DNA of 49,848 nucleotides, from NCBI GenBank assembly GCA_004431415.1, contig QPMI01000238.1, forward strand, positions 1 to 49,848. The letters are read 5' to 3'. Both the position numbers and the translations under genes were made by a program. Below are positions 1 through 18,523 of the stretch, piece by piece (within the stretch, counting starts at the first letter, position 1; each line of letters begins with the position of its first letter). The notes under the pieces are model-generated. The model ran no database searches. It was not told where the DNA came from and was given only the letters and a program-made list of their open reading frames with translations. Origin of the DNA: Cyanophora paradoxa CCMP329 (lineage: Eukaryota; Plantae; Glaucophyta).

Positions 1-1603
1 CCATGTGATCACCACAATTGCTACTTTGGTTTGCTTTGAGATTCTCCTGTGGAGGTTGCAGTTTCGGCATGCTTTCCCAATAAATGCTCCTGATTGATGA
101 CAATGGTCTCTCACTGGGAAATTCTCATGGGTAATCGTTCAGCACAGATTAACAGTGTTTAGTGATCTGTATTGGCTTTCTGCTCTCTGTGAGTGGTGAT
201 TGGAATATTGTGAATAGAGTGCGGAATTATTGGGGTCTGATCTCTGTGAGAGTGGTAACAGAGCACAAGTGGATCTGATCCCTCGAAATAATGAGAATCA
301 CTTATCCCATCACAACTGTTAAAGAACGATTGACTCTCTTTTACTGCGGTTCTCATCAATTGGAACCGAGTGATGTCATTTTTACATAGCAGATAGTGGG
401 AAGCCACACAGTTTTGCGAAGGTGTTGAAGCCCAAATGCAATGTGATTCCAGATTTCGGGCATTTACCTTTGCTCTCCTCCATCAATGCAGCGATTCGCT
501 TCTATATGAACATCCAGCTTCTCCTGAGTTCTGAAACGAGACAGACAGGTCTCACAGTAATAATGCGACATCATGGGTTTCAAAGGTGTTTTCAGAGTCT
601 ACTAGAGACATGATGGTGATATAATGCCCTTATCCTCTTCGTTTTCGATTATAAAAGGTTAATCTTGGTCTTTCTCCTGGGTTGCTGGATTGATGGAGAG
701 GATAGAACACTGTGCTTGATTATCTGCACCATAATGTTGATACTCAGTTCAGGGTTCTGCTCCTCAAATCGATCATAACCTCTGCATCACAGGCAACTGG
801 AACTGGATGCCTTCGAAATTGAGTTCGTTTAACCATCTTTATACTGGCTGGGTTCATTGCTCTTGTGTTTATTAATTCATTTCGGTGCAGGTAAGCCAAG
901 ATTGCATACTTGAGCAGTCTTGACCATCAATATTCTTCACATTACAGTTGCTCTCTTGATCCAATCCACTCAGGTGTTGAGAAGAAGCACCACCACAGGA
1001 GCATAAGACATTATTACCACTCTCAGCATCTCATGCGATCCAGTCTGTAACTGTCACCTGCATCATCTGCTCCTGCATGGATTGAAGGGCATTCGCAGTT
1101 CAACATCAATATTTCGTGATCTTGTGATGACAAGTATCACTGTAAATGAATTTCGTGATCCACACCCTGGGATCACTCACTTTGGTGAATTTACAAATGA
1201 AGGTCAACCGAGTTTTAATTGCTCTCAGGTCTTGGAGTTTCTTCTGAGTCTCTGAGGTAGAGTAGGTGCAATTCTCTCCAAGAATTCAATCCCATCTTGG
1301 ATAACCTCCCTCTGGCTCGATAGGTTAACCAGGAATATGCTTGTTCATGGCTTCCCCATCTTCAATCTCGGGTTCAATTGTTCCAACCTTAAACCTTCAT
1401 CCCTGAATTCCTCCATTTTCTCAAAACGATCATAGAGGCGATTTGTAATTTCTGTGAGTTGAGATAATCTTGGTCTTCTGTCCAGACTGCTGCCTGGCGA
1501 TCATATTCAAATTCTGTAATATCACCAGTGACTAAAAGGGTTCCTAAAAGACGAGTATTTCGTTTTTCTTCTCTTTGATGATTCTATTGGATTGGCGGGG
1601 CAT
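1..1603 (-). pseudogene. Protein-primed family-B DNA polymerase (pPolB), N-terminal half, many frameshifts; runs off the left edge
   Basis: Manual minus-strand translation across 1-bp gaps gives, in the expected order: NVKNIDGQDC(F)KYAILAYLH (~880-943), WLNELNFEGIQ(F)PV (~795-835), DRFEEQNPELSINIM (~733-775), HYITIMSL (~603-626), YYCETCLSRFRTQEKLDVH (~505-562) and VRDHCHQSGAFIGKACRNCNL (52-114). This is the motif series of EndoVII-containing Polinton pPolBs. Candidate ATG at 1601-1603. The frameshifts may be sequencing errors. Confidence 0.85.
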
Positions 1604-1705
1604 CTTTTACTTTAAGGGAACATATTATTTTTGGGCAATTTGAACGCATTTCGCATTTTTCAGGTTCTAATGATTCGCACATTCGTGCCTTTGGGACATA
1701 TACAT

Positions 1706-1849
1706 TTACTGTGTCAAGTCTGCTTGCATGGAATCGCTTCTTTTGATATGGTCTACCATTACTGGCTCTGATCTTTGCATATATTCCGCTACCTCTGCAA
1801 TATCATTCTTTTCGACCAGCTGCCGCTGAATTTCGTCGAAATAATCCAT
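1706..1849 (-). CDS. Small viral hypothetical protein (47 aa as read; may be frameshifted and longer)
   Basis: ATG at 1847-1849 (MDYFDEIQRQLVEK...), preceded by the CAAAAATTGAC-N5-ATTTAAGGG motif seen upstream of other viral genes. Confidence 0.3.
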   Translation of the reverse strand: MDYFDEIQRQLVEKNDIAEVAEYMQRSEPVMVDHIKRSDSMQADLTQ

Positions 1850-1880
1850 GTTCTGTCAAAGTCAAGGAAAACGCAATGAT

Positions 1881-1905
1881 CCCTTAAATCGCCAGTCAAT
1901 TTTTG
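1881..1905 (-). promoter_or_regulatory. Putative early promoter CAAAAATTGAC-N5-ATTTAAGGG
   Basis: Same bipartite motif with the same spacing at 5043-5067; contains the AAAATTGA octamer. Confidence 0.6.
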
Positions 1906-1987
1906 TCAAAACACACCATTTACGATACGTTTTATATTGTCCGATAAAGAATCGAAAAAGTCATCGACCCACAGGGGGAGTCTGTGG

Positions 1988-2147
1988 TTAATTGGGTGTG
2001 ACGCCTGTGACGCCTGTGACACCTGTTTTCAGAGGTTTGTAGATTTTTGAAATTTTAAAAAGTTTGAAAGTAGGCGTCACAGGCGTCACAGGCGTCACAC
2101 TCAATTAAAAAGGTGTCACAGCTGTCACACAAACCATTTACAGTAAG
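1988..2147. repeat. Iteron/origin-like cassette A
   Basis: TGTGAC(G/A)CC at 1997, 2006, 2015; 49-bp AT-rich core 2024-2072; GGCGTCACA at 2073, 2082, 2091; arms 1988-2024 and 2072-2108 pair at 35/37; two extra degenerate units 2112-2129. Reverse-complement homolog of cassettes B and C. Confidence 0.9.
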
Positions 2148-2198
2148 GTTTTTAAAAAATAAGAAATTCAATCAGTATTAGAATCGATTCTGTTTTGT

Positions 2199-4555
2199 TT
2201 ACTCATCCCCACCTTCAACATCACTGTCATCCACCAACTTGCGACTATGCTTCTTTTTGATCCCAAGTAGCCACGAGCAAGAACACCATTGACTCGCTTT
2301 CTCTCAGCCTTCACATTAAAGACTTCGCGAAGTCTCTTCAAGATAGTGCATTCTGTGATTTTCTCATCAGATTTGCCATGTGATCCATCTTAAAGTGACT
2401 GATAATGGACTCACTTGTGGCGAAATCCCTTGACTCTTGGTGAGTTCATAACTCTCACGAATCCATTCTCCAATCTTGTCATTCTCATTGAAATATTCAA
2501 CACCTTGATCAACAATGGACTGGGTGGTTGGTGACGAATTCATTGAGAGAATGGGTTCTCCACATTTCCAGGAGAATGGACATATGCGCCATTTTATAAT
2601 CGTCATCATTCTTCATTAGGCGCATTAGAGTGGTGTCTGCTTTCTTCTCACCAGGCTGAGGATCGACCTTGAAGACATTTTCGAATCGGTAGTAGATAAT
2701 TCGCCTTTGGATTGCTGCATCTGGTTTACTGATTCCCAGGTTGTCATTTGTGGACAAGAACAACTGGAACATGGGAATGAATGTAACAAGATCTTTGAAA
2801 AGAGCTCGAACCTTCATCTCATTCCCACCAGTAACCTGTTTGATTTTGTTCAGTTGAAGCATATCACCATCTTCTGCTTCATTACTGAAAACAATTCGTT
2901 TACCAAGAATGCAAGCGAGTTCTGGGGAAGCCTCTGACGAACTCTTCTTGGTTTAGTCCAATATGTCATGTCCAGTGACCCATAATACTCACCAAATGTG
3001 TCTTTCACCAACTCTTGGAGCAGTGATTTCCCATTTGCTCCAATTCCAGTCCAGCAAGTGTATCTCTGATTTTCTGTCAAACCACTCAGGGCATAGGCGA
3101 TTAATCCCAGCATGAATTCGCGGTCTGTATCCGATTCAATAATATCTGCATAGATGGATTTAATCTTTGCAACCTTCTCTTGGTCAATTTCTGTGGTGTA
3201 ATCGTAGCCAACAGTCTTACTCACCATATCATATGGGAGTCCCTGTCGAAAAGTCATGGAGTTCAAGTCAAATACACCATTTGTGAACCCAATGATGTTG
3301 GGAACAGTATCAAGTCTCTCGAAAAAGGTCTTGTCACTGAACAGAACTGAAAGATCAGACATAAGTGCAGTTCTGTATGTAGTCTGTTTGAGGCTCTTAG
3401 CAATTCCCAGCAGAATCTTTGACCTTTCCTCCAAGGAATTGCGGTTCTCTTCATCACGAAGAGCTCTCTGTGCGAGTTGAACAGAACGTTGAAGATAAAC
3501 TGGACAGACCTTGCAGCTCAAACAGAGAAAGATTCGCTTCCCAGTTTCATCCATCTCCCAAATCCCACATACATCATTGAACTTGAACCAGGTCTTGTTG
3601 GAATACTTGTATTTGTCTTGCAGAACAAGATAGGCAACCTGTGCAACATCATAATGGGCACCATCAGATCCAGCAGACCGATCAATCAGATTTTCGATAT
3701 TCGCATCTGTCTCTTCCTTCACACGAATTGTGATAAGTCGCTTCTTGCAGTTTGCACTGTAACTCGAAACAATATATTTGTCTTTCTCCTTCCCTTGAAT
3801 AATATACCAATTGTTTGAGTCATGGCTTCCCTTGCAGCAGGGACAGACCAGACCTTTGTTCTCAGCAGTGAAATTGTATCCCATCTTGGTCTCATTGATG
3901 ATTGTGGGCAAGATGAAACCGAATTCTTCGAGTTTAGAAAGAATATGTTTCTGCAAATTCTCCTCAGCGCACCTTGCATAATAAGAATGTGCACCTTTGG
4001 GGAATTCGTAGTTTTCAACAATCCACTTTTGCAACTCAGCAGTGGGTTCATTTAACTCACACTCAGATGCCCATGGCTCTCTGATCCATGTTTTGTTGGG
4101 ACTGGGGCAAACATTAATCACCCCAGCAGTCCCAGTGGATGCAATCGTTTTGCAGTCGATCTTGGGGTTTCCTTTGAATGCACCCGCTTTATCCCAGATC
4201 TTAATGGTGTCGAATTCAGCAGGTCGAGCGAAGAATGCATGATATCCTTTTTTGGTTTTAGCAAGAGGATTAACACCACCGAAATCATCAGGAATTGCTC
4301 CTCGAATTTGGCGAAATCCTCCTCTTGGTCGAAGTCAATTACCAGGATATTACGAGCGAGAATGCCCCAAGCAGTATATTTACCGGATTTCAGGGCTTCA
4401 TCGAATTTATCCCAAGACCAGGTTCCGTCTTTATGAGCGAAAAGTGGCTTTTTGGTATCAGGATCAACAGGAATAACGATATTCTCAGACAGGACATCGT
4501 CTTCACGAAGCCATTCAACAAGGCGTTTCAGGGATTTCTTGGCGGCAGCGTTCAT
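2199..4555 (-). CDS. Prim-Pol (AEP) primase fused to D5-like SF3 helicase, about 785 aa once frameshifts are corrected
   Basis: Joins ORFs 4118..4555, 2850..4121, 2509..2862 and 2367..2609. Prim-Pol motifs IPV..TKKP, WGILARNILVIDFD, TKKGYHAFF, IDCK..GVINVCPS; Zn-binding CPCCKGSH; D5_N-like IGFTNGVFDL; Walker A GIGANGKS; SPELA..GKRIVFSNE; IKQVTGG; AIQRRI; C-terminal RVNGVLARGY; TAA at 2199-2201. Frameshifts near 4291, 2945, 2525 and several in 2260-2430. Confidence 0.9.
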
Positions 4556-4586
4556 TTCAACAATCGGGGGCTTCTTATCCTTAATG

Positions 4587-4639
4587 GAGAAATTAATTTC
4601 TCCGGTCGCTTGTCATTTTTTGGCGCCTAACCTTTAAAT
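4587..4639 (-). promoter_or_regulatory. Putative promoter of the primase-helicase gene (ATTTAAAGG, CAAAAAATGAC and ACCGGAGAAATTAATTTCTC boxes)
   Basis: All three boxes recur upstream of the ORF starting at 4977. Confidence 0.55.
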
Positions 4640-4749
4640 ACCTTTGGGTTCTCCGATTGGCGCTCGATGTATGGTAATGATCCATCGAAAAGTCGATTGA
4701 TCATGGTAACAAAAAGGATTCAGCGGATATCTGGGACTTTGGGGGCGGT

Positions 4750-4977
4750 TCAGTATTTTCTGGGACGACCTACTGGGCGTTTCACTGGATTATTGGGATC
4801 CATCTCAGCAGCTTTCCTGCGATAATATCGTTCCAGTGCCTTTTTACGATATAATTCTCGAAATTCCTCATCTTGATAGCGTTTCTGGAAATACAAGCGG
4901 TCATACAACCTTTTCCTCTCATTGGGATCCACCTCGCTCATTGCAAGTTCGAATTCGACCACAGATTCAGTTTCCAT
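4750..4977 (-). CDS. Small basic DNA-binding protein with C-terminal AT-hook
   Basis: 75 aa, R/K/Y-rich helix ending KRPVGRPRKY (GRP AT-hook core); conserved upstream motifs. Confidence 0.7.
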   Translation of the reverse strand: METESVVEFELAMSEVDPNERKRLYDRLYFQKRYQDEEFRELYRKKALERYYRRKAAEMDPNNPVKRPVGRPRKY

Positions 4978-5001
4978 TTGATATGTTCCTTATAATGGGA
5001 C

Positions 5002-5067
5002 GAGAAAATAATTTGTCCGGTTCACCAATCAAACACACCTTACCCTTAAATCCCTTGTCATTTTTTG
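5002..5067 (-). promoter_or_regulatory. Putative promoter CAAAAAATGAC-N5-ATTTAAGGG plus ACCGGACAAATTATTTTCTC box
   Basis: Matches the motifs at 1881-1905 and 4587-4606 (18/20 identical for the ACCGGA box). Confidence 0.6.
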
Positions 5068-5177
5068 CAGATCGAGACCAGTTCCTGTCTACGCTTTTTT
5101 ATTGCGGCTTCTGTTGCATATTCAGCGGATTTCCTTTCAAGGATAGCATAGATCTCAGAGAGACTGAGCATTCGATA

Positions 5178-5411
5178 TTAATTACCGAGATTTAATTTCG
5201 GATCTGTGAAAGATACAGACCTGCGCCTCACTGTCTCTGTTTTAATATGCTCTTCGAAATCCACCGAATCTGTGGATAATCGCCTACCACCAGATCCATG
5301 ACTCTCAGTGTCAGAGAATTCGATTTCGACTTTGGTTTCACAGCAGCCACTGTGACAATTGCTCACAATGTGGAGATTGAACATCTCTATGAGTTTTCGC
5401 AAGAAATCCAT
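5178..5411 (-). CDS. Viral hypothetical protein (77 aa, CHSGCC motif)
   Basis: ATG-started ORF packed tightly in the co-oriented viral gene run. Confidence 0.6.
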   Translation of the reverse strand: MDFLRKLIEMFNLHIVSNCHSGCCETKVEIEFSDTESHGSGGRRLSTDSVDFEEHIKTETVRRRSVSFTDPKLNLGN

Positions 5412-5438
5412 GATGCTCTCTCTCTTAATGCGAGATAA

Positions 5439-6173
5439 TTAAAGCCAAACTCGTCGTTTATATACTGTTGGGGCAACACCTTTATCGACCTCTGATTTGG
5501 TAGCACCAGGTTCAATGGTGCCCTTCTGGGTTTTGGTCTTCATCTCATCAACTGCCTGCTCATCAATTTGAGTCTCTTTCTTACCAATGAACTGCTTATC
5601 TGGGAGACCAGTGATTCCCATTCTATACACCTCCTTTCGCAGCATCTCCTTTAATTTCGCTCTCTCTTTCTTCTCAGAGACATACTGTTCAAGAGCACTG
5701 GATTTCGCTTCCAGATCTTTAAGTTTCGCAGTCATTTCGTCCCATTGGGCTTTGGGAATTCGATGGATATTCTGTGTAGGTGCGACCTTGTAGGTTACCT
5801 CACCAGCCATGGATTGAATTACCTTGTCTGATTCTTTGGATACACCTTCACCTTTGCGAGCAAGGGACAGATCTTGGAGACCCAGTCCTTTGTCATCAGC
5901 AGCACCAATAATTCGACGAGCACCTTCACCAACTGCCTTCATCTTAGAGGTTTCGGGCGAAATATTCAACTGGTCACTTGTGGAAGCTTGGGGAGCTTTA
6001 TCATCTGGTGATTCTTCGTAAGCAGCATTGAGGGGATCTTCTTGTTGCTGTGATGCTTTAACTTCATTGACACCATTGAATTTCATGGGCTCTGTGTTAA
6101 TAGAACCGGTTCCAGAGGATGCAGAATATGACATAGCACCAGCAGGAACACCAACTTTGCGTTTGGAAGGCAT
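5439..6173 (-). CDS. Viral hypothetical protein (244 aa, K/E-rich, coiled-coil segment; possible virion core protein)
   Basis: Long intact ORF immediately downstream of the ATPase with 27-28 bp intergenic gaps; function not recognised. Confidence 0.75.
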   Translation of the reverse strand: MPSKRKVGVPAGAMSYSASSGTGSINTEPMKFNGVNEVKASQQQEDPLNAAYEESPDDKAPQASTSDQLNISPETSKMKAVGEGARRIIGAADDKGLGLQDLSLARKGEGVSKESDKVIQSMAGEVTYKVAPTQNIHRIPKAQWDEMTAKLKDLEAKSSALEQYVSEKKERAKLKEMLRKEVYRMGITGLPDKQFIGKKETQIDEQAVDEMKTKTQKGTIEPGATKSEVDKGVAPTVYKRRVWL

Positions 6174-6201
6174 TGTATATTTATTAGAAGCAGAGATTAT
6201 T

Positions 6202-6984
6202 TTATAAACCTCTCTTATATCGCATCAGTTTATTCGAATGAACACCACTCTTGACCTCTTTGGGGGCTTCCTCTTTCTGTGGAGGTGGTAATTCGTCCTC
6301 TTTCTTTTTGGGCTTCCTGTGGAACCGAGGAAACTTAAAGTCTTTAACGAGTTCCGCTTTATCAACGTAGTATTCCACCGAATAATTCGCAGAACTCCAA
6401 ATGAGAAACTGATAGGAGTGAACGTATTCCTCAAACATCTTATAGAAAGCGTCTTTATCCCGCATGATATTGTATTCTTCTTCAATGGCTTCCAGTTCTT
6501 TGCGATTGGCGGCACTGAGGAACATTGCATAATCCGAATTGACGCGAATGGTTGAAGAAACCTTACGCAGTTTCTGAGTTATGCAGAAAATTGTAATCGC
6601 CGAGTGGCGGCCGCGCGAATACAGAGATCCAATAATTTTATCACGGGTAAGGTCTACAATCTCATTGTCTATAAGATCATCGAGAACAACACATAATTGA
6701 TTAACGGGTTCTCCTTTCTCAATTTTCTCTTGTCTTTCATCGAGAAGTTTAGCGATGTAAGGCGCATCCCATTTACCGAGCTGTAATGTTGCGACATCAT
6801 CCCAAAAATGATTGAATGATGTCCCACTTATAACAAGAACAACATCTAACTTTTTCGCATCGTGAAGTTGTTTTAGCCAATATTTTACGGCTTCTGACTT
6901 GCCCGTCGCGCTTTTTCCGATTGCTAATACGCGAAAAGGGGGTTTAATCATCTCAGCAGCATTAAATTCGGGAACGTCAGACAT
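6202..6984 (-). CDS. A32-like (FtsK/HerA superfamily) genome-packaging ATPase
   Basis: PPFRVLAIGKSATGKS (Walker A), LCVVLDD (Walker B), SRGRHSAITIFCITQ and TIRVNSDY, which are signature motifs of A32 ATPases. Confidence 0.95.
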   Translation of the reverse strand: MSDVPEFNAAEMIKPPFRVLAIGKSATGKSEAVKYWLKQLHDAKKLDVVLVISGTSFNHFWDDVATLQLGKWDAPYIAKLLDERQEKIEKGEPVNQLCVVLDDLIDNEIVDLTRDKIIGSLYSRGRHSAITIFCITQKLRKVSSTIRVNSDYAMFLSAANRKELEAIEEEYNIMRDKDAFYKMFEEYVHSYQFLIWSSANYSVEYYVDKAELVKDFKFPRFHRKPKKKEDELPPPQKEEAPKEVKSGVHSNKLMRYKRGL

Positions 6985-7046
6985 GGCTTTGTAGATCTTT
7001 CTTATTAAAGATAGATAAAAATAACGAAACGTTACTGATAATGGTT

Positions 7047-8420
7047 TTACAGATTAATGCGACGAAGACCATCTTTGTCAACAATAATGAAACTGTGCAT
7101 GAGAGCACGAACATTAACTGTGATTGTCTGGTCAGAAGGCATGTATAGAGTAAGGAAAGAAGAGGAGGAGTTCGTGAGATCAACATAGCCAGACTGGGCA
7201 ATGTTGCGAATCGCTTTCTCTCCATCAACACAGAATGGTAGACCACTGAGGACATATTTGTCTGCAACCTTGTCCATATTTGAGCACTTGAAGGCATCCG
7301 CAATTAATTCGGCACCTTTGAGGAGAGGGATGGGCTCAGTAGCATAGAGACGTTGACCATTAATTTCAACAGTGAAAGTAATGTCTTTTGAGTTAGCATG
7401 CGTTTTTAGGACACTGTGGGAACCATTGAAACCATCAATACCTGCGGCATCACGAACTGAAACAAGAAGACCATAGACAAGACCAGAGATCTGTGACAGG
7501 TTAATACGATTTGGTTGAGCATTGCCTTTTGCAGCAAAATTGACACTGTCAACAAAACCAATATCCAGAGCAGGAATAGCCATACCAGTGGTCTTCACCT
7601 TCTCAATGACAGTAGCAAACAGTTCATCAGAAACATTAATAGCATGCATGTAAAGACGAGGAGAAGTGACTTTAATTTCGGGGGTTGTTGTTGCACCAAT
7701 TCCAAAAGTGGTGATTTGTTGACCAACATGGGCAAGAGTAGCATTAGCAGTAGCACCAAGTCCATCATCCTCTGTCTTATCAGCAGCTGTTCCACCAACA
7801 ACAGGAAGAGCACGACCACCATAAGAAGTCTCAACATAACCCTTTCCAGCATCCTTGAACCAGACAGTTACCACCATTTCTCCTGAGAGAGCACCAAGAG
7901 GTAGGTAGTGGTTTAGCCATGGGACTGGGATTTCAGTGAAAAATGACCCACCAAGTCGGTTGGTTCCATGGGCAGGGATACCATGAACCATTCCCATTGA
8001 ACGCTTCTTCTTGGCGAGTTGATCCTCACTGTAATAGATAAGAGGGAAATGAGCAAGGAAATCAGAAGGCACATGGAAGGTGTAAGATCCATAGGTAATT
8101 TCAAGTCGAGAGACAAGAGCACCAACTGGGCGAACGTATCCATTGCGAACAAGGTCGGTATCACCAGCAAAAGTGACAGCTGGAAGGTCAAACGCAAGTT
8201 CGAGTTTTCCACAGAAATTGTAGCGAGGGAGCTTGAAAGAAATGCGATTTCCAGCATTATTCTCGAAAGTGTTGCTTGGGTTCACAACAACAAGAACTGG
8301 CTTCGACTTGGATTCAAGACCAAGCATGAGAGAGTTGTCCAAGAAGAACGCCTTGGCTTCTTCCGGGGTTGTTAGAGCTTCTTTCAGAGAAAGACGTTGG
8401 AGGGTCGAAGTAATATCCAT
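7047..8420 (-). CDS. Double jelly-roll major capsid protein (457 aa from ATG 8420)
   Basis: GNRISFKLPRY..LAFDLP, GALVSRLEITYG, IPVPWL..YLPLGAL..MVVTVWF follow the DJR Capsid_N pattern; size and position between ATPase and penton genes fit a PLV MCP. Confidence 0.85.
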   Translation of the reverse strand: MDITSTLQRLSLKEALTTPEEAKAFFLDNSLMLGLESKSKPVLVVVNPSNTFENNAGNRISFKLPRYNFCGKLELAFDLPAVTFAGDTDLVRNGYVRPVGALVSRLEITYGSYTFHVPSDFLAHFPLIYYSEDQLAKKKRSMGMVHGIPAHGTNRLGGSFFTEIPVPWLNHYLPLGALSGEMVVTVWFKDAGKGYVETSYGGRALPVVGGTAADKTEDDGLGATANATLAHVGQQITTFGIGATTTPEIKVTSPRLYMHAINVSDELFATVIEKVKTTGMAIPALDIGFVDSVNFAAKGNAQPNRINLSQISGLVYGLLVSVRDAAGIDGFNGSHSVLKTHANSKDITFTVEINGQRLYATEPIPLLKGAELIADAFKCSNMDKVADKYVLSGLPFCVDGEKAIRNIAQSGYVDLTNSSSSFLTLYMPSDQTITVNVRALMHSFIIVDKDGLRRINL

Positions 8421-8474
8421 GATTATCTCTTTTATTATACTGCAACATAAAAAATTCACCAATGATCCTTGATT

Positions 8475-9485
8475 TTACGCAAAATTCGCAATAACCGGAT
8501 AAGATGGATGTGTTTCCGCCATTCTCCTCTTGAAGTATTCGTACACAGGATCACCAGCAGGTTCATCACCATATCGAATTTCGAAGGTGAGGTGGACAGG
8601 TTGACCCTCGAAATCAATTGGTTCATTAACTGCATTCACAATATCAACCGAAAATGTGGAAAGTCCCAGATTCTTGTTATAGTATTTATAAATCGGATGG
8701 GCTTCTGTCGAATTATAAACGACATGCTCACCATAATCTTTATCTGGAACAACGATTTTGTGGAAATATCCAGTGAGGAGACCATCACCACATTGAACCA
8801 GATCACCCAACTCCTTTACTCTCACAAACAGAACACTATCCCTGGTCTTTTCAGGTTCAAATGAAGATATGATACCATGCACCATCGACCCAGTAAAGAT
8901 ACCATCAGTCAGAGTATTATAAACTTGTGATTGGATTGGGGTGTTACCATATCTCCCAGGATCAAGACCAAGCAGTCGAGCAGAACTCAAAAACCTCTGA
9001 ATCTGCGCCTGGGTTGGGTTTATTGCAGTTGAGAAAGCCAGGTAAAACGGTATGGTGGAATGGAATATTACTCGTTTCAGTGTATCATCCCATTTACAGC
9101 GAATTGCTACTGGTGGCTCTCTCAATGCAAGTTTGGAGTTAATTACATTCACCAGTTGTTGGTGGTTTTGAATGGGTGTGCTGCGACTTATCACAATGTG
9201 CTTCCATTGCTCATAATCGGCAGCAGGTCGATCAGTTGGAATACCAGTGCTTCCTGCACCAGAATAATATTCAGACCAATAAAGGTAGATTGCATTATCT
9301 ATTGTCACATCTCCTACTTTGGTTTCACCACTCACCATGGGAATGCTGTTATAGAATTCTGCTGAAACCAGTCTTACTGCTCTCACAAATTCATAGGTGC
9401 TGGGGAGGCGAGCAATAAAACTCGAAGTAGGTCCATCTCCCGAAATTGTATTGAAAGAGCTCACTTCGATGTAATCCACAGGCAT
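8475..9485 (-). CDS. Minor capsid (penton-like, single jelly-roll) protein 1
   Basis: N-terminal IEVSS..SSFIARLP..VRAVRLVSAEFYNS; C-terminal LFVRVKEL..FSVDIVNAVNEPIDFEGQPVHLTFEI, the PLV/Polinton mCP pattern. Confidence 0.75.
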   Translation of the reverse strand: MPVDYIEVSSFNTISGDGPTSSFIARLPSTYEFVRAVRLVSAEFYNSIPMVSGETKVGDVTIDNAIYLYWSEYYSGAGSTGIPTDRPAADYEQWKHIVISRSTPIQNHQQLVNVINSKLALREPPVAIRCKWDDTLKRVIFHSTIPFYLAFSTAINPTQAQIQRFLSSARLLGLDPGRYGNTPIQSQVYNTLTDGIFTGSMVHGIISSFEPEKTRDSVLFVRVKELGDLVQCGDGLLTGYFHKIVVPDKDYGEHVVYNSTEAHPIYKYYNKNLGLSTFSVDIVNAVNEPIDFEGQPVHLTFEIRYGDEPAGDPVYEYFKRRMAETHPSYPVIANFA

Positions 9486-9513
9486 CTTCTTTTATCTATA
9501 AACATATATTAAA

Positions 9514-10446
9514 ATGATTCGGCTGGTCAATATAGATAGCAGAGACCGATCAGATGGACAAATAGAAAACTCCTACAAAGTTTCACTCACAACCCCAGTG
9601 ACCAAACCAAGAGAATGTCGAGTTTTGTATGCAGAGATCCCCAACAGCATCTATAATTCCATTGGAACAGACCACCTTCTTGTCAGATTCTTCTACCAAG
9701 GCATCTCTGAAACCAAACAGGTCTTCCTTCTCCCAAGTGGTTATATTAATCAAGGGCATTTCGGGGTCACCAGTCCATATAATTATGGTCTGAATTTCAC
9801 ATTTACTGGGAGCAACAATCTCACATATGCATTCAAAGTCTACTATAATCCTACCTCCTACAAATTGGAGTTTTACAGTAATGTTCAATTCGAGATGGTA
9901 GCATCTACACAGAGATTGGGTAAACTTCTTGGGGTTAGTTCTGTGGAGTGGGTCGCTTCAATTGAGCAAACCTACGATTTCCCAGAGTCTGCAAGGTCTT
10001 TATATGCCCCCGAGAATTTCCTCTATTTTGCAGGAATCCCAATCACCCCAAACCATCCACAATGGGGAATTACATTTACAGGATATGAATTCGAGGCATC
10101 TCGCTTAAACTACAAGTTAGAAGCAGCCAAGATGACAGACATGAATGCAGAACAGTATTTATACATGCACATTAAAGAACTCTCCCCATTTGCTACAAAC
10201 CACAATATTGTCCCAAGATCACAACCACAGAATCAAGGGGCGATTCTCAGATTGCAGTTAAGTAAAGATATTGGGCAGTATGTATATCACAGTGGAGAGC
10301 ACAGTGAATACATAAAAATAACCGATCGAAACCTGGTGATTAGAGAGTTAACAGTTGAGTTTCGAGATTATTATGGTGATCTTGTAGATATGAATGGGAT
10401 TGACAACTCATTCCAGTTGGAGTTCTTGGCTATTGGTAATGATTAA
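9514..10446 (+). CDS. Minor capsid (penton-like, single jelly-roll) protein 2
   Basis: N-terminal VNIDSRDR..YKVSL..RVLYAEIPNSIYN; C-terminal YLYMHIKEL..LTVEFRDYYGDLVDMNGIDNSFQLEF. Confidence 0.8.
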   Translation: MIRLVNIDSRDRSDGQIENSYKVSLTTPVTKPRECRVLYAEIPNSIYNSIGTDHLLVRFFYQGISETKQVFLLPSGYINQGHFGVTSPYNYGLNFTFTGSNNLTYAFKVYYNPTSYKLEFYSNVQFEMVASTQRLGKLLGVSSVEWVASIEQTYDFPESARSLYAPENFLYFAGIPITPNHPQWGITFTGYEFEASRLNYKLEAAKMTDMNAEQYLYMHIKELSPFATNHNIVPRSQPQNQGAILRLQLSKDIGQYVYHSGEHSEYIKITDRNLVIRELTVEFRDYYGDLVDMNGIDNSFQLEFLAIGND

Positions 10447-10696
10447 ACCGATCCTGATAGAAGAACTCTCCATCTGTCTCGAAAATATTAAGAAGGGGAC
10501 TCTTAGCATCCTCTGTATACCATCGGCGAATTGTCTTATCCCATTTAGCACCATTCTTTTTCAAGAATCTACAAAGAGTTGATCTCCTTGTAATTCGCAA
10601 TCCCATCTCTTGAAAGATCTCATAATGATCTTGCATTCTATTCACAATCAAGATGTAAGTTCCATGGAAATTGTGATATTGCTGGTTAATCGGCAT
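10430..10696 (-). CDS. Small viral protein with a DUF5710-like motif (88 aa from ATG 10696)
   Basis: LKKNGAKWDKTIRRWY matches the K.xGAxWD...xWY motif; the start at 10696 is supported by CAAAAATTGAC at 10728-10738. Confidence 0.6.
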   Translation of the reverse strand: MPINQQYHNFHGTYILIVNRMQDHYEIFQEMGLRITRRSTLCRFLKKNGAKWDKTIRRWYTEDAKSPLLNIFETDGEFFYQDRFNHYQ

Positions 10697-10718
10697 GTTT
10701 CCTTTACAGCATGATGGG

Positions 10719-10738
10719 AAATCGTTTGTCAATTTTTG
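10719..10738 (-). promoter_or_regulatory. Putative early promoter CAAAAATTGAC-N5-ATTT
   Basis: Fourth copy of the motif, about 32 bp upstream of the ATG at 10696. Confidence 0.55.
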
Positions 10739-10871
10739 GCGAAACGAGAGTATCTCATGAGATAGATGAGAGAATAACAGGTGTGTTTTCAGGGTTGGAG
10801 AAATCGGAGAAACATAGAGTATTGCGATTTCCGAGTTAGTTGACACTGAGATTTTCAGAATTTCAGATGGT

Positions 10872-11052
10872 CTTACTGAAAATGGTCAGATAATCGGGTG
10901 TGACACCTATTTAATTGACTGTGACGCCTCTTTAATTGACTGTGACGCCTGTGACGCCTGTGACGCCTACTTTCAAACTTTTTAAAATTTTCAAAAATTA
11001 CAGACTTCTGAAAACAGCCGTCACAGCCGTCACAGGCGTCACACCCAATTAA
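10872..11052. repeat. Iteron/origin-like cassette B
   Basis: TGTGACGCC at 10941, 10950, 10959 (extra units at 10899 and 10920); 49-bp core 10968-11016; G(C/G)CGTCACA at 11017, 11026, 11035; inverted relative to cassette A. Confidence 0.9.
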
Positions 11053-11182
11053 AAATGGAATCTCTTTCTCTTACTGAGATTCTCGAGAATATATTCTTGT
11101 CTTACTGAAATCCGTCTTGTGACACCTCTGACACCTCCAAAACACTATCCATTAATCAACCTTTTTGAAAATGCGAAGTTGT

Positions 11183-11334
11183 CTTACTGGAAATGGTCTG
11201 CAATTTTGCTGTGACACCTAATTTAATTGAGTGTGACGCCTGTGACGCCTGTGACACCTACTTTCAAACTTTTTAAAATTTTCAAAAATGACAGACTTCT
11301 GAAAACAGGCGTCACAGCCGTCACAGGCGTCACA
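11183..11334. repeat. Iteron/origin-like cassette C
   Basis: TGTGAC(G/A)CC at 11232, 11241, 11250 (extra unit at 11210); 49-bp core 11259-11307; G(G/C)CGTCACA at 11308, 11317, 11326; direct repeat of cassette B. Confidence 0.9.
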
Positions 11335-11447
11335 GACATTCCACCCCTCTTACTGACTTTCTCAAAAACAAAACTATCTCTTACTGAATATCATTTGAAT
11401 ACTACCTGTCACACTTGATCTCAATTATTCTGTTTTATAGAACATAT

Positions 11448-11706
11448 GCAATCTAATCGAATGTTCAATTGGAGACCATGCAACTCTGTGACACTTTTTT
11501 CAATCTAAAATATACATCCGCAATCTCATCGATTGTTTAATTGGAGACCATGCAGTTCCGATATATTCCAATAGAAAATCCCGCAATCTAATCGATTGTT
11601 TAATTGGAGATAATGCAACTCTGTGACACTTTTTCGGTGCAAAAATGTACATCAGCAATCTCATCGATTGTTCAATTGGACACAATGCAACTCTGTGACA
11701 CTTTTT
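11448..11706 (+). repeat. Subterminal tandem array, 4 units (periods 72, 63, 72 bp)
   Basis: Core GCAATCTmATCGAwTGTTyAATTGGAsAymATGCA at 11448, 11520, 11583, 11655; units 1, 3 and 4 continue ACTCTGTGACACTTTTT. Confidence 0.85.
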
Positions 11707-12026
11707 GCGTTTTTCGATACAGAATGGGCGGTGGTCTACTTCAATACATGAGAGATATATCGAGTTTATGCGAATTTATGCAATTTAATCGCGATTATAT
11801 CGATCTTTAAGTAGTTTAATGTTAATCTATCGCAGATTTGTATGTAAACAACAAAGTACATAATCAATCGATATAAGATCAATTGAATCTATCGAAGTTT
11901 AATCGAAAATATGCATTTTGGAAAACGCGTTTTCGTTTTTAATACAAAGTTTGCATTATTTTATACAAAGTTTGCATAAAAAGTTAAAGAAATTAATCGA
12001 AAAATATGTATTTTAGTATTAAATTA

Positions 12027-12111
12027 ACACATATTGAAAAACGAATTTAAATCCAGGAGCGAAGCGCGAAGCGCGAAGCGGAGGGATTTAAATTCGTTTT
12101 TCAATATGTGT
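12027..12111. repeat. Perfect 28-bp inverted repeat with a (GCGAAGC)3 loop
   Basis: ACACATATTGAAAAACGAATTTAAATCC (12027-12054) and its exact reverse complement (12084-12111); the 29-nt loop has GCGAAGC at 12059, 12066 and 12073. Confidence 0.95.
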
Positions 12112-13490
12112 GACATCGATGTCGGCGTCACCGAGTGCGATTCTTTCACTGAACTCCGGAGGCGTAGAGATGACCGGCGAGAGAATTGAAATGGTCCCGG
12201 GGTGCGATCGGGGTGCGATTTGCAGCGCTCGTCAGTTTTCGCTGACCCCAATCGTCGGCATCCTCAGCTTCGAAATGGGCTGCTGCGGTATAGAGCCGAA
12301 CGAAATCCCTGGAGCTGGGTTGACCAGCCTCGGCACGCGCGACACGCCAGTCCTGTACGCGACTTGGTCAAGTTTCAAGGACGACTATGTTATGGCGAAC
12401 TCCAAATATGTGTATGCCCATCAACTGAACGTCACGAGTGCGATCATTGTTTTCGCACTCATTATTGAATCATGCAATATTTATATATTTCTCCCGCAGT
12501 GCCGCCCACCCCGACACCGTCCGCGACGCCTTCGCCGTCTCCGACCCCCTCGGCGTCTCCGTCGCCGTCCCCCTCGCCGTCCGCGATGCCCCCGCCGTCT
12601 GCGCTGCCCACTCCGCCTCCGCCTGCGGATCCGATCGCGACCCCCACCACGATTCCGGTACCTCCTCCAACGACGCCGACGACCGAGCAGCAGCAGACTC
12701 AGGCCACTAGTACTCCGACGCCAACTGCAGCTGCTCTGCCACTTGCAGTTGCACCACTGGTGCGGATTGACTGAAAGCTGGAGTCTGCATTTGATCTCAA
12801 CCACTTGCTTGAATGTGAACGCGATCGCGTGCAGCCCTTCATCACCAAGAACGAGAGCAAGGAGGTCGTCGTCGGCAATTTCAAGGTTCGAATCGACTTC
12901 AAGATTTTCCATCACCATTCATATTACCGCCGTTGACAATTGCGCAACAACAGTTTAAGCCGACGGATTTCAAGCCTGACAAGGTGTAGTTTTTTTTATT
13001 CCCCTGACTCTCCGTCACGTGTGCGTAACTATAATCTCGCGACATCGCTAAAGCTTGTGAACGCCAGGACGCGGATGGCAAAAATGTTTACAAGGTCCAG
13101 CTTCCTGCAGCGGTCGTCTCTGCTTCAACGGTTCACTCGCTTGCACTTTGTTTTGTCATGATCAACGGTTATTCCTCGTCATACTGACCATGATCGCAGA
13201 CCGGATCCAGCGCGAACAATTTCGTTATCATTCCAGTCACCGGCGTCCTCGAGGTGCGCTCAGTGCATATATCAATTTCTCGAAATAATCCGATCGATAT
13301 TCAGCTCCCGATAATCAGCTCCCGATAATTAGAACCTGTGTTTACACAAATGTTTAAACGAATGCAGGTCGGGGATAAAGTGATCGTGTTCATCATGAGC
13401 GCGGACGGCAAGACAAAGCGTCCGGCAACGCAGACTTCCGTCGAGGCGTCCGGCAACGACGTCGTTCTCAAATTCAGTAAGAACGGATAT
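12112..13490 (+). pseudogene. Possibly 5'-truncated spliced host gene with a Pro/Ser/Thr-rich linker
   Basis: Codon-like exons bounded by GT..AG (e.g. acceptor at 12499; PTPTPSATPSPSP tract; VGDKVIVFIMSADGK exon); in-frame TGA at 12772-12774; the 3' end may extend to about 14.1 kb. Confidence 0.35.
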
Positions 13491-14829
13491 ATCATTAATA
13501 CATAATTTCTTCTCATCGATTTCGGCCCCCCGCGGCCACGATCCGCAGAGGCTCCGCAGCTGCGCCGTAGCCTGCTGCAGTTCGGCGCCAATATCGCAGT
13601 GCGTTTGAGGGTTCCTCGTGCGCACCGCCTCCTCTCAACGCACTGCAGTACGACCTTCGCATCGAGCCGGACCCGGTCGCACCCGGAGCGCGCGCGTTCA
13701 TCCCGATCGTCTTTGGCGGCGTGCGCTTGCTTTAATTTGCTTCGATTCCTATCAACTCGATCAATATCTGGCGATGAACATGCGCAATGCATATATATAC
13801 ATGAATGCGCAATAAAAAAGGAGAATATTAATAATTACAATATTCGCGAATTTGACTTTAAACTACCACGCAACAGGCATTCCAATGGACCGCGCTCGCT
13901 TCATCTGTCCCCTATTGGCCCAACGGCGCGGCGTCCATTCACGTAAGCCTGTTTCAGCTGTTTAATTTGCTTTACATCAACGGTCTGATCTAATATTATG
14001 CCCCCCGCAGAACTCGCTGGTTTCCAACATTGTTTGCGCCCTCGTCTCGATCTCTTTCGCCCTCGTCATGCAGATCTAGATGCATTTGCCTGGGGCGAAC
14101 CAGGAGGAGATCGACAGGTCCGAGGTCGACCTGGCGCCGGCACGGCCACCGGTTCAATAAAATCTTGCGCTTGCGATACATATGATTTCGGTTTCGGTTT
14201 ATATAATTAAAAAGGTTTTCGATCACACTGTAGCTATTCGAAATTCATAGATCTAGATTTCGTGTAATAATGCGAATATTAAATAATTATAATTATAATG
14301 CACGTAGGGTTCGATTTTAACTAGTAAGCGCATGCACACGCACGCGTACGCGTGGTTCCCACGTGCACTAGCCGCGTCGGCACCAGCACGGGCGGACTTG
14401 AGCACTTAGCTTGCACGAGGACTTGAGCGGGGCCTAGCTGGCGCGGGCATGCGCAGGGCCCGGGGTTCGTTCTCGCTTGCCTGCAGCTGCACGCGCATGC
14501 GCAGCCGCTGGGCTGCGGCTTGCAGGCATCCTAGACTGGAGATATATGCGTGTACCGCCGCGTGCTGCGTCGGCGCCCATGGGAGCTCGCGCGACGCACA
14601 AGGCTGAGCTTAAAAAAGCTTGAGCGGTGACAACTGGTGGGGCCCGGGCCGGGGGAGCACCGGCTACGTTGGGCACTAGTACTAGTACTGGCTGGCAAGG
14701 AGGAGGGGGCCGGGGGAGAGGGGGGACGACTGGCTGGCGCTGGCTGGCTAAGTGAGGAAGGGAGGGGGAAAGAAAGCGAGCGCTGGCCATGGGCCGCGGG
14801 CTCGGCATGGGGGCGCCGAGGGGGCGGGG

Positions 14830-15714
14830 CTAGAAGATGCGGGGGGCGTGGACCTGGGGCAGGCCGTCGAGGGCGTGGAGGACGCTCTGCCGCTGGGCGG
14901 CCTGCGCCGTGAGCCGCAGCGGCTCGCGCTGCGGCCGCGCCCGGCGGCCGGCCGCGCGGGGGCGGCCTGCAGGCCCTCGAAGGGATGCGGCGCCACCGTC
15001 AGGTGCGCGATCTCCTCCAGCTCCACCCCGGGCTGCCCCCGCCGCGCGCGCGCGCACGCGCCCTGTCAGACTCGGCCCGCGCGCGCCTCTGACGTCGACA
15101 GAGCTCGAGCGGAAGGTGAAATTAAAGTATACGTAAAGCACCTGCGGCGGCTGCAGAACGCGTACGTTAACTCCGTACAGGGCGACGGGGCCGACGTAGT
15201 CGTAGCGCTAGCGCCTCAGCTGCAGGCACTGGGGGTGCCAACCGAATGAGCGCAGCGGATAGCACCAGGGCGGGAGGAGGACGCTGCGGCGCGCCTGCTC
15301 GACCTCGTAGTCGTCGACGGCGGCGTACGCCGTGACGACTGCCGCGGCCTCGCCGGCCGCACGATCCGGAAGCGCTTCGACGCTGCGCGGGGGCGCCGTC
15401 CTTCCTCGCGCGCGCGGCCCTCCCCGCGCCTGCGCCGCCTGTGCGCATGCCGCCCTCCGAGGACGCCGGACGCCTCGGCCGACGCGGGGGGGCTCTCCCC
15501 CGCGGCCGGCGACTCGCCCTCCCCCTCGTCGGACCCGCGCCGCTGCCGCCGTCGCTGCTCTCCTCCTAGCTATAGGCCTCCTCCTCCTCCTCCTCTGTAC
15601 ATGTCGTCCGCTGCTGCCGCTCTGCGACGTCGACGGCGGCGGCGGACGGCTAGCGCTCCTTGCAATTGATAGGCAAGGGCATGCGCTGCGGCTCGCGGGC
15701 GTCCCGGAGTCCAT
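14830..15714 (-). CDS. Spliced host hypothetical protein
   Basis: Exon-like segments YAAVDDYEVEQ, YDYVGPVALYGVNVRVLQPPQ, VELEEIAHLTVAPHPFEGLQ and QSVLHALDGLPQVHAPRIF* separated by short introns; start uncertain. Confidence 0.35.
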
Positions 15715-18221: not shown

Positions 18222-18523
18222 AGATTCGGTATCGGCGCCCCCGCGGTAGTCTAGTCTAGTGTAGAACCGGTTAGGTACGGGCAGTCGCAGTCTCGCAGTG
18301 TTTAAAGTAGCCGTAGACTTATATAGCAGGCGCGGCAGGCCCGTCTGAAGAAGTTTTGGCCGCCGCTTCACTCTTTCGATTGCTTCTAAGCAAGTGTCAC
18401 GAGGCGAAGCGCACGCTTCGATCTGTGTTCTTGGCTTTCGCTATCCCTGTATACGTGAATTCTTGCTACAGAATTCGAACCTGAGAGTACATATAACGCT
18501 CTACCCCCCTCCCCCCCCCTCGG

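Follow-up and report, generated by a model that had tools for sequence, protein, structure and literature searches.

The closest described relatives of the element reported here are Polinton-like viruses (PLVs) of the same alga, Cyanophora paradoxa, for which 366 genes for the major capsid protein (MCP) have been listed in two clusters of 272 and 94 (Bellas et al., 2023; PMC10120064, Tables S2 and S4). The contig name, length and opening residues of P0001, a C. paradoxa protein published as a PLV MCP, fit a row of Table S2 with an HHpred value of 98.5% to an iridovirus MCP, and another row shares 41 of the 44 first residues, compared by eye. The accessible parts of that study describe no ends, origins, promoters or replicase pair for this MCP family.

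The pairing of pPolB with a primase-helicase is also on record. Mavirus and the low-GC EMALEs combine pPolB and primase/helicase with low-GC insertions at multiple sites and helper-type promoter motifs, as does our element, but have a virophage capsid and protease and a late TCTA motif instead of an early motif (Hackl et al., 2021; PMC8547959). Some virophages of Halocafeteria seosinensis likewise carry pPolB and a D5 primase-helicase, and these viruses, together with PLV subtype 4, have terminal palindromes for which hairpin priming has been proposed; host and capsids differ from ours, the double replicases are those of virophages, and the available part of the report names neither GNA loops nor iterons (10.64898/2026.07.28.741278). 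Multi-replicase polisuviruses, which include a C. paradoxa contig, unite pPolB, AEP and internal repeats, but according to the accessible text the repeats bracket a replicase that is separate from the capsid module, whereas here they enclose the AEP-SF3 gene plus a capsid module (Barth et al., 2026; 10.64898/2026.10.13.758929). In Gezel-14T/PgVV, a giant-virus-dependent PLV, the early motif AAAATTGA precedes replication genes, as it does here; its host is a haptophyte, and where our element has pPolB and AEP-SF3 it encodes TVpol and a tyrosine recombinase (10.1101/2022.07.28.501842). The SaPI origin and its PriRep resemble our locus in a primase-SF3 fusion followed by opposed iterons around an AT core, but belong to a bacterial circular satellite, whereas the element has three such palindromes, known from sequence (PMC9371898). 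Streptomyces telomeres share GNA loops on the 3' strand, a linear replicon and an internal origin (predicted in our case), and differ in having several palindromes and Tap/Tpg in place of one stem, three GNA units and pPolB (PMC5449611).

The window considered here is a whole stretch of 49,848 nucleotides of C. paradoxa CCMP329 (contig QPMI01000238.1), of which positions 1-12111 hold the right-hand 12.1 kb of a multi-copy endogenous PLV, represented here by one of its copies (Table 1). The element is less new than an earlier note on this DNA had proposed, its capsid family and two-replicase gene set being already on record. The idea of an undescribed lineage finds little support, because the same MCP family is listed from C. 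paradoxa in the tables of Bellas et al. (2023), and novelty of the two priming systems finds none, pPolB and primase/helicase being reported together in EMALEs, Halocafeteria virophages and polisuviruses.

Table 1. Features of the element and its flank (window coordinates)
Feature	Position	Strand	Remarks
pPolB, N-terminal part (vOTU-like, zinc finger and EndoVII-like stretches)	1..1849	-	Frameshifted; runs off left edge; presumed start codon
Early-promoter-like motif holding AAAATTGA	1895..1905	-	54 nt before pPolB start
Palindrome A, predicted origin	1986..2121		Just downstream of primase-helicase gene; folding z -11.5
AEP primase - zinc-binding - SF3 (D5-like) helicase	2168..4555	-	~795 aa if whole; frameshifted; presumed 3' end
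Early-promoter-like motif	4612..4622	-	65 nt before primase-helicase start
75-aa basic ORF	4750..4977	-	No significant family match
Early-promoter-like motif	5057..5067	-	88 nt before 75-aa ORF
77-aa ORF	5178..5411	-	No Pfam match
244-aa ORF	5439..6173	-	No family match
A32-like packaging ATPase	6202..6984	-	Open; Pox_A32 E 4e-9; one 82% relative
MCP, 457 aa	7047..8420	-	Open; C. paradoxa PLV family
Probable minor capsid protein 1 (penton 1), 336 aa	8475..9485	-	Open
Possible minor capsid protein 2 (penton 2), 310 aa	9514..10446	+	Open; candidate identity
88-aa ORF	10430..10696	-	Weak DUF5710 match, below cut-off
Early-promoter-like motif holding AAAATTGA	10728..10738	-	40 nt before 88-aa ORF
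Palindrome B	10919..11053		Inverted copy of A (91%)
Palindrome C	11222..11345		Direct copy of B (96%)
AT-rich imperfect direct repeats	11448..11761		One iteron-like TGTGACAC each
Possible terminal inverted repeat, ~150 bp	11960..12111		Suggested by contig depth, up ~1.8-fold in X5 and X10
Terminal hairpin, 85 nt	12027..12111	+	Folding z -13; 3' end is the element's end
Unique host flank	12112..14859		0-1 differences from short-read contigs; 52% GC at 12112-14300

Extent, copy number and integrity

Junctions in short-read contigs place the right end of the element at 12111 and not at 11740, where it had been drawn before. The contrast with a GC-rich host is borne out (~42% GC in the element, 70% in the host part), and the CpG observed/expected ratio is 0.53-0.62 in the coding part of the element versus 1.09 in the host part. 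That the element is inserted at numerous places in the host and stops sharply, a mark of such elements, is evident from at least seven distinct flanks which, besides that of the window itself, are joined to it at 12111-12119 (eight loose-end rows listed). In four runs the depth of element contigs exceeds that of the unique flank contig 8.7- to 37-fold (9-15 times in X5, 32-37 times in X10), a ratio that differs between runs and is not equivalent to copy number; the runs compared may represent one strain, and one of them may be the source of the window. The flanks and the deeper contigs uphold the earlier description of the element as endogenous, multi-copy and probably young.

A check of the virus-host junction, as had been suggested, leaves a chimeric assembly of free virus and host DNA extremely improbable. 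Although only one of the six runs (X15) has a contig that reaches into the virus by the 31 letters demanded by the tool, a contig starting in the hairpin arm continues into the flank in five of the six, with 0-1 differences, and the same base is joined by other flanks.

Both replication genes are frameshifted in the window, and the bases missing from them are present in short-read contigs. All gaps against the 17 tabulated contigs of the element are bases absent from the window, at a rate of 49.5/kb at 10-373, 23/kb at 959-1434, 6/kb at 2080-3098 and 0-2/kb past 3300; in two contigs there are gaps alone, 13 and 6 respectively, and 0 substitutions. Since the short-read contigs hold the missing bases and the gaps fade from the left tip, the frameshifts are likely to be long-read consensus errors rather than decay. 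Such artefacts in EVE assemblies are noted in the accessible text of Bellas et al. (2023; PMC10120064). That the replication genes of the window's own copy are truly broken is very unlikely: the frameshifts and the low CpG ratio of the coding part would fit decay, but the differences are deletion-only, become fewer with distance from the left tip and are frequently unaccompanied by substitutions, and the five longer ORFs to the right show no break. Short-read contigs merge many copies, so that the intactness of the window's own copy is no more than probable, and a pPolB that is both whole and intact did not turn up among them. Without reads, frameshifts in contigs of such elements are no proof of decay.

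Gene content

The pPolB and the primase-helicase recognized earlier are both present. A profile of seven long PolB-like ORFs from IMG/VR, two of which match DNA_pol_B_2, matches the leftmost gene collinearly in two frames (949-368, 873-634 and 186-31; E 5e-7, 9e-6 and 6e-8), and the region also matches Endonuclease_7 (E 0.002). The identification of pPolB stands on these N-terminal matches; the gene is broken into many frames, and the window covers just the N-terminal ~590 of ~1250 profile positions, the polymerase core lying outside it. The profile matches nothing significantly before position 256, and thus no terminal-protein domain is seen; a search with a 46-aa piece of pPolB found no full-length relative.

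The primase-helicase matches Prim-Pol (E 0.075), D5_N (E 2e-9), DUF5906 (E 4e-5) and PHROG primases, and has relatives of 787-833 aa. In the window it is spread over at least three frames, with splits near 2945, in the helicase, and near 4290, where the DxD and His motifs, previously described as intact, fall into different frames. The two replication genes appear to travel together, because their contig depths are similar (pPolB/primase ratio 0.82-0.94) in all four runs.

Homology and modelling assign the MCP to the double jelly-roll type that marks PLVs, and an A32-like packaging ATPase, another mark of the group, accompanies it. The MCP is 61% identical to P0001 and matches Atlas clusters of Capsid_N/Capsid_NCLDV (13-30% of members) at 0.98, with a recognition value of 1777 that lies under the tool's mark of 2300. 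It is an isolated protein: two relatives were found among 1.84 billion representatives, the ATPase having just one, and pattern matches in IMG/VR (5) and JGI metagenomes (296) yielded no confirmed relative. From the Maverick-Polinton gene set pPolB is present, by its N-terminal part, and the MCP shows neither a Pfam match to the Polinton type (PF21738) nor similarity to a PF21738 MCP. A virophage-type MCP is equally unsupported by Pfam, the Atlas neighbours being NCLDV-type capsids and the mavirus MCP reaching just rank 36 in Foldseek, and a Pfam search of the element ORFs in 1-12111 gave no virophage-type family match.

The ATPase, the MCP and two penton ORFs are all uninterrupted, as had been claimed, and the first two are identified, whereas penton 1 is an Atlas lead only (0.97-0.98 to viral clusters, with DUF5901 on 13% of one) and penton 2 a candidate with 28% identity to penton 1 over 46 aa (E 0.03). 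Structure prediction, proposed as a check, was informative in part: a poor model of the MCP (AlphaFold pLDDT 36.7) still returned MCP matches in Foldseek, and an equally poor one of penton 2 (35.5) returned none at E 0.001. No integrase, whether RVE or tyrosine recombinase, lies within 1-12111; rve adjoins a related PolB in both IMG/VR loci whose neighbour on that side was scanned. The left end of the element and its target-site duplication likewise fall outside the window. No cysteine maturation protease was found among the ORFs scanned in 1-12111, the right-hand part of the element only. A search of Rfam with 1-16000 and a sequence search of the PDB gave no match.

Palindromes, promoter motifs and terminal hairpin

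The terminal hairpin, the three internal palindromes and the promoter motifs were overlooked in the earlier note. Palindrome A consists of three 9-bp iterons, an AT-rich core and three inverted iterons, and thus has the layout of SaPI origins directly after a primase-SF3 gene; the likeness suggests that palindromes A-C may be replication origins. Reading A and B as true terminal inverted repeats was rejected as the main interpretation because the host junctions lie at 12111. The 24-nt iteron pattern occurs at five IMG/VR loci, in none of them with an inverted partner; at four it belongs to extended tandem arrays of 9-bp units or to their truncated ends and at one it is a lone contig-end match, and they were discarded as relatives. 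The region of the direct repeats (11380-11800) folds no better than shuffles (z 0.0). An iteron palindrome of ~120 bp offers a short, testable signal for the primase-helicase in a culturable alga.

The published Mimiviridae early motif AAAATTGA is found in two of ten upstream windows (shuffle P 0.0012), and in Gezel-14T it stands before the replication genes. A relaxed form, AAAA(A/T)TGA, precedes four of five non-structural and none of five other genes (Fisher 0.024), this form having been chosen after the data were seen. The late motif TCTA lies at most 20 nt from three of five structural or late starts and is too common to count. Giant-virus insertions are present in the C. paradoxa genome, with the viral genes methylated. 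A giant helper virus would likely switch on expression of the PLV; going by the early motif, this helper of a glaucophyte is predicted to be Mimiviridae-like.

The terminal hairpin has a perfect 28-bp stem (12027-12054/12084-12111) and a purine-rich 29-nt loop with three GCGAAGC mini-hairpin units (GC-GNA-GC), the GNA loops lying on the 3'-terminal strand as in Streptomyces. GCGNAGC is a nuclease-resistant mini-hairpin that occurs at primase sites. The two strands fold nearly equally in ViennaRNA (-32.6 and -31.2), which does not model the sheared G-A pairs on which strand-specific folding depends. In a minor variant contig, representing one event, four of 12 differences are listed, all in the loop, and three of these are the N of each GNA (P ~0.001, in an N-position test chosen post hoc). 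No flip/flop loop isomers were seen, the listed variant positions not fitting a reverse-complement loop. The triple motif occurs at 74 loci in IMG/VR, of which two, phage loci chosen after the data were seen, have a stem of at least 10 bp; both adjoin iteron arrays and one a replication-initiator gene. These features suggest a signal for priming or end protection, which can be tested on a hairpin of just 85 nt with a natural variant that obeys the GNA rule. In the literature searched, a GC-GNA-GC end hairpin, three inverted-iteron palindromes and a motif before four of five non-structural genes were not found.

Proposed replication cycle and alternative readings

The element is likely to be a helper-dependent PLV predicted to replicate from internal origins. 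From its gene set, end, flanks, palindromes, hairpin and motif placement we infer a cycle of six steps. Copies would remain silent until a Mimiviridae-like RNA polymerase reads AAAA(A/T)TGA before the non-structural genes; an RVE-type integrase, encoded in the left part beyond the window, would excise and insert the linear genome; the SF3 helicase would load on the inverted iterons, the AT core melt and the AEP domain prime; pPolB would provide processive synthesis; the displaced 3'-terminal strand would fold into the GNA hairpin, resist nucleases and mark the site of end completion; and the ATPase, MCP and minor capsid proteins would package the product. The joint reading, a multi-copy PLV with pPolB and AEP-SF3 that is switched on by a giant virus and has internal iteron origins and a GNA-capped end hairpin, seems to us evenly poised between right and wrong.

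Replicase replacement under way, in which a pPolB-type PLV acquired AEP-SF3 along with the palindromic origin of the latter (or the exchange ran the other way) and one replicase works without cooperation of the other, is doubtful, if with a real chance of being correct. Multi-replicase genomes with internal repeats are so read in the accessible part of Barth et al. (2026; 10.64898/2026.10.13.758929), and the available text on Halocafeteria treats double replicases as transient states and finds terminal palindromes mainly with non-pPolB replicases (10.64898/2026.07.28.741278); palindrome A, moreover, stands between the two genes. Against it, the same promoter motif precedes both genes, their contig depths are similar in all four runs, and the bases missing from both are present in majority contigs. 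Two tandem or nested elements, namely a capsid-bearing AEP-type PLV bounded by A and B/C and a transpoviron-like pPolB element, are quite unlikely: the junctions with host DNA gather at 12111, which is 760 bp past C, depth does not drop left of A, and none of the loose ends listed lies at A. This is so even though A and B, as inverted copies, bracket the primase-helicase and capsid genes, the depth of penton contigs in X5 is 1.74 times that of pPolB contigs, and the C. paradoxa contig in the accessible text of Barth et al. (2026) is described as a tandem of three elements, of which two are transpoviron-like and the third is AEP-only.

Replication in two steps as in Streptomyces, where replication proceeds from an internal origin and the overhangs, folded into GNA-loop hairpins, are then patched (PMC5449611), would here mean bidirectional internal replication by the primase-helicase and patching of 3' GNA overhangs by terminal-protein priming and pPolB. 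The strand on which the GNA loops lie and the N-terminal terminal-protein domain carried by Polinton pPolBs would agree with this, but the pPolB profile reveals no such domain, and the fully paired 3' end of the hairpin suits self-priming or protection equally. Strand-displacing pPolBs, as established for phi29 and adenovirus, need no internal origin, which counts against the two steps. This alternative is unlikely, and so is the wider picture of a eukaryotic virus that would replicate like a Streptomyces linear replicon while driven by the early promoters of a glaucophyte giant virus.

Among the smaller ORFs, the 75-aa basic protein ends at its C-terminus in what we take to be an AT-hook-like GRP motif.

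Extent, lineage and capsid genes of the element

The endogenous Polinton-like virus (PLV) recognized in the earlier note is real and multi-copy, with many flanks joined at 12111, and it contrasts in composition with its surroundings (36–42% GC over 1–12111 versus 70% from 14300 onward). Its right end, formerly set at 11740, is placed at 12111 by a sharp drop in contig depth past this position and by the multiple flanks, the eight loose-end records listed at 12111–12119 holding at least seven distinct ones besides the window's own. Six of 15 sequencing runs holding half or more of the window's words were compared, all as short-read contigs and possibly from one strain. The junction sought at 11.7–12.1 kb was recovered to the extent that contigs cross 12111 in five of the six runs: a single contig spans 12084–14859 with zero differences in X1, X2, X5 and X13, and that of X15 begins at 12081 with one difference and is the only one to reach 31 viral-side letters, the contig of X10 beginning at 12160. 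That the junction is a chimera is hardly credible.

The flank (12112–12958; 52% GC) contains a Pro/Ser/Thr-rich stretch and an apparent intron acceptor near 12499, and a Pfam search of it gave no match; insertion of the virus may thus have hit a host gene at this point. Intron-rich host genes lie at 18500–23000 and 36900–41300; their products are one combining TPR with glycosyltransferase 41 (O-GlcNAc transferase-like) and one carrying two guanylate/adenylate cyclase domains.

Coordinates of the principal features of the element
Feature	Position	Strand	Description	Support
Palindrome A	1986–2121		~120 bp: three 9-bp iterons, AT-rich core, three inverted iterons	
A32-like ATPase	6202–6984		Open ORF	Pox_A32 E 4e-9
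MCP, 457 aa	7047–8420		Open ORF	
Penton-sized protein 1	8475–9485	minus	Open ORF, head-to-head with 9514–10446	
Penton-sized protein 2	9514–10446	plus	Open ORF, head-to-head with 8475–9485	
Palindrome B	10919–11053		~120 bp: three 9-bp iterons, AT-rich core, three inverted iterons	
Palindrome C	11222–11345		~120 bp: three 9-bp iterons, AT-rich core, three inverted iterons	
Terminal hairpin	12027–12111		Fully paired 28-bp stem; GCGAAGC three times in its 29-nt loop	Fold z -13

All four capsid and packaging frames are open in the window, as had been claimed, and searches gave no confirmation of penton identity for the second penton-sized ORF. The MCP has two relatives among 1.84 billion representatives, one at 61% (P0001, an annotated Cyanophora paradoxa gene model) and the other at 36%. 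Table S2 of Bellas et al. (2023; PMC10120064) includes an MCP sharing the opening residues, length and contig name of P0001, for which HHpred gives 98.5% with an iridovirus MCP. A second entry is nearer to the window MCP: comparison by eye finds 41 of its first 44 residues alike. For C. paradoxa, 366 MCP genes in two clusters are counted in Table S4. The likely host on this evidence is C. paradoxa or a near relative of it. Because its MCPs stand in these tables the family is counted as catalogued, and the suggestion of an undescribed PLV lineage is largely not supported. Judged by its capsid, the element is neither a Maverick-Polinton nor a virophage. Low-depth ATPase contigs, about 88% like the window over 6397–6777, and an ATPase protein, P0003 (82% identity), point to divergent subfamilies.

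The family is catalogued yet barely studied, and the main novelty claimed, two replication systems in one element, has already been reported: pPolB and a primase/helicase likewise occur together in low-GC EMALEs (PMC8547959), in Halocafeteria virophages, for which terminal palindromes with a hairpin-priming model are also described (preprint 10.64898/2026.07.28.741278), and in multi-replicase polisuviruses, a C. paradoxa contig included (preprint 10.64898/2026.10.13.758929). What the element adds are signals for replication and promoters that can be put to the test.

Frameshifts in the replication genes

The earlier note listed a pPolB and a Prim-Pol/SF3 helicase with intact DxD and H catalytic motifs; both genes are frameshifted in the window. 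The primase–helicase is spread over at least three frames, with Prim-Pol (E 0.075), D5_N (E 2e-9) and DUF5906 (E 4e-5) each in a separate one, and the match to its relatives (787–833 aa) changes frame near 2945; its DxD and His motifs lie in different frames, which the restoration of one missing base near 4290 joins into 568 open codons, versus 145. The pPolB region consists of many short frames, matched collinearly at 949–368, 873–634 (both away from the picking motif) and 186–31 by a profile built from seven long ORFs of eight IMG/VR loci chosen by an EndoVII-like motif (DNA_pol_B_2 match in two of the seven). Since these matches cover only profile positions 256–581 of 1261, the polymerase core is placed beyond the left edge; a profile search of the part of pPolB within the window found no terminal-protein domain.

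Among the 32 records listed, 17 element contigs and one flank contig were tabulated, with the exclusion of near-duplicates and two low-depth divergent ATPase records. Every gap against the element contigs is a base absent from the window, and gaps per kb amount to 49.5 at 10–373, 39–46 at 482–937, 14–23 at 959–1434, 5–6 at 2080–3287 and 0–2 farther right; the records at 604–937 and 2080–3098 hold 13 and 6 gaps, respectively, and zero substitutions. We infer that the frameshifts are low-coverage consensus errors at the contig tip, an artefact of the kind described by Bellas et al. (2023). A decayed copy is quite improbable in view of the missing bases, their left-tip gradient and the two substitution-free records. 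Since short-read data stack the reads of many copies on one another, as the same authors caution (PMC10120064), the window's own copy is no more than probably intact.

Iterons, terminal hairpin and promoter motifs

The palindromes, the terminal hairpin and the promoter motifs had escaped the earlier note. Of the copies of the iteron core, 23 lie in 1–12200 and two in the remaining 37.6 kb. Palindrome A adjoins the 3' end of the primase–helicase gene, a placement like that of SaPI origins just 3' of primase-SF3 rep genes (PMC9371898), and PLV repeats have been proposed as primase–helicase origins (Barth, 2024; PMC11296320). Six copies of TCTTACTG, possibly a second binding motif, lie on one strand at 10871–11386, some separating palindromes B and C and others adjoining them. 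The small basic product of ORF 4750–4977, with an AT-hook-like end and an early-promoter-like motif in front, is a candidate for binding to the AT-rich cores of the predicted origins.

GCGNAGC forms a stable nuclease-resistant mini-hairpin that occurs at primase sites (PMC13037366), and the GNA loops of the terminal hairpin are shared with Streptomyces telomeres, whose overhangs they cap (PMC5449611). A minor hairpin variant (one contig; depth 84–200, in three of four runs) has 12 differences; the four that are listed lie in the loop, and three of these four fall on the middle bases of the three GNA units (P ~0.001, post hoc). The loop of a second, deeper variant is ten bases longer and keeps the central GCGAAGC, as read by eye from loose-end letters. 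Triple GCGNAGC-type motifs were found in 74 IMG/VR loci, two of them with a stem of at least 10 bp. In these two, the phage-like contigs L089 (5997–6612) and L088 (7985–8270), chosen post hoc, the stem with three such units lies beside iteron arrays, and one of the two stems folds only weakly (z -2.0); in L089 a replication-initiator gene is directly followed by inverted iterons and then the hairpin. Such a stem may be an unrecognised origin signal common to different replicons.

CAAAAA(A/T)TGAC occurs four times in the window versus 0.03 expected, each time 40–88 nt upstream of a non-structural gene. Two of ten upstream windows contain AAAATTGA, the early core published for Mimiviridae (shuffle P 0.0012), and its relaxed form precedes 4/5 non-structural versus 0/5 other genes (Fisher 0.024). 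Gezel-14T carries the same early motif upstream of its replication genes (preprint 10.1101/2022.07.28.501842), and giant-virus insertions and methylated viral genes are reported in C. paradoxa (PMC12344493). Neither GNA loops or iteron palindromes named for any PLV nor Cyanophora PLV promoters were found in a literature search mostly outside subscription journals; figures and bioRxiv supplements may hold them.

A proposed cooperative replication model and its alternatives

The reading that we prefer, at about even chances, is that of a silent integrated PLV driven by a helper. A giant-virus polymerase would read the early motifs, and an integrase would be encoded in the missing left part (rve adjoins related PolB in both loci checked). 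By analogy, the primase–helicase may open and prime at the palindromes, with pPolB elongating, and the 3'-terminal strand, as folded in silico, might form the GNA hairpin as a priming or protection signal. Against this reading we count the lack of a terminal-protein match, the unconfirmed second penton, the equal computed energy of the hairpin on both strands and an unexplained depth pattern in X5.

The alternatives are not all mutually exclusive with it or with one another. Replacement of one replicase by the other is doubtful, and a Streptomyces-like patching of the ends, to which the shared GNA loops are relevant, is unlikely and would itself be one form of cooperation. An arrangement of two elements in tandem is slightly less likely still.

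The pPolB/primase contig depth ratio is 0.82–0.94 in all four runs compared. Element contigs have 8.7–37 times the depth of the flank contig, a ratio of contig depths and not a copy number. Between runs this last ratio spans 9 to 37, and in X5 the penton and MCP contigs have about 1.7 times the depth of the pPolB contig (penton 1.0–1.15 in three other runs), which could reflect copy-number change or graph effects. In X2, X5 and X13 a contig diverges to a different sequence at 12080 in the hairpin, which suggests that one copy was cut inside the hairpin.
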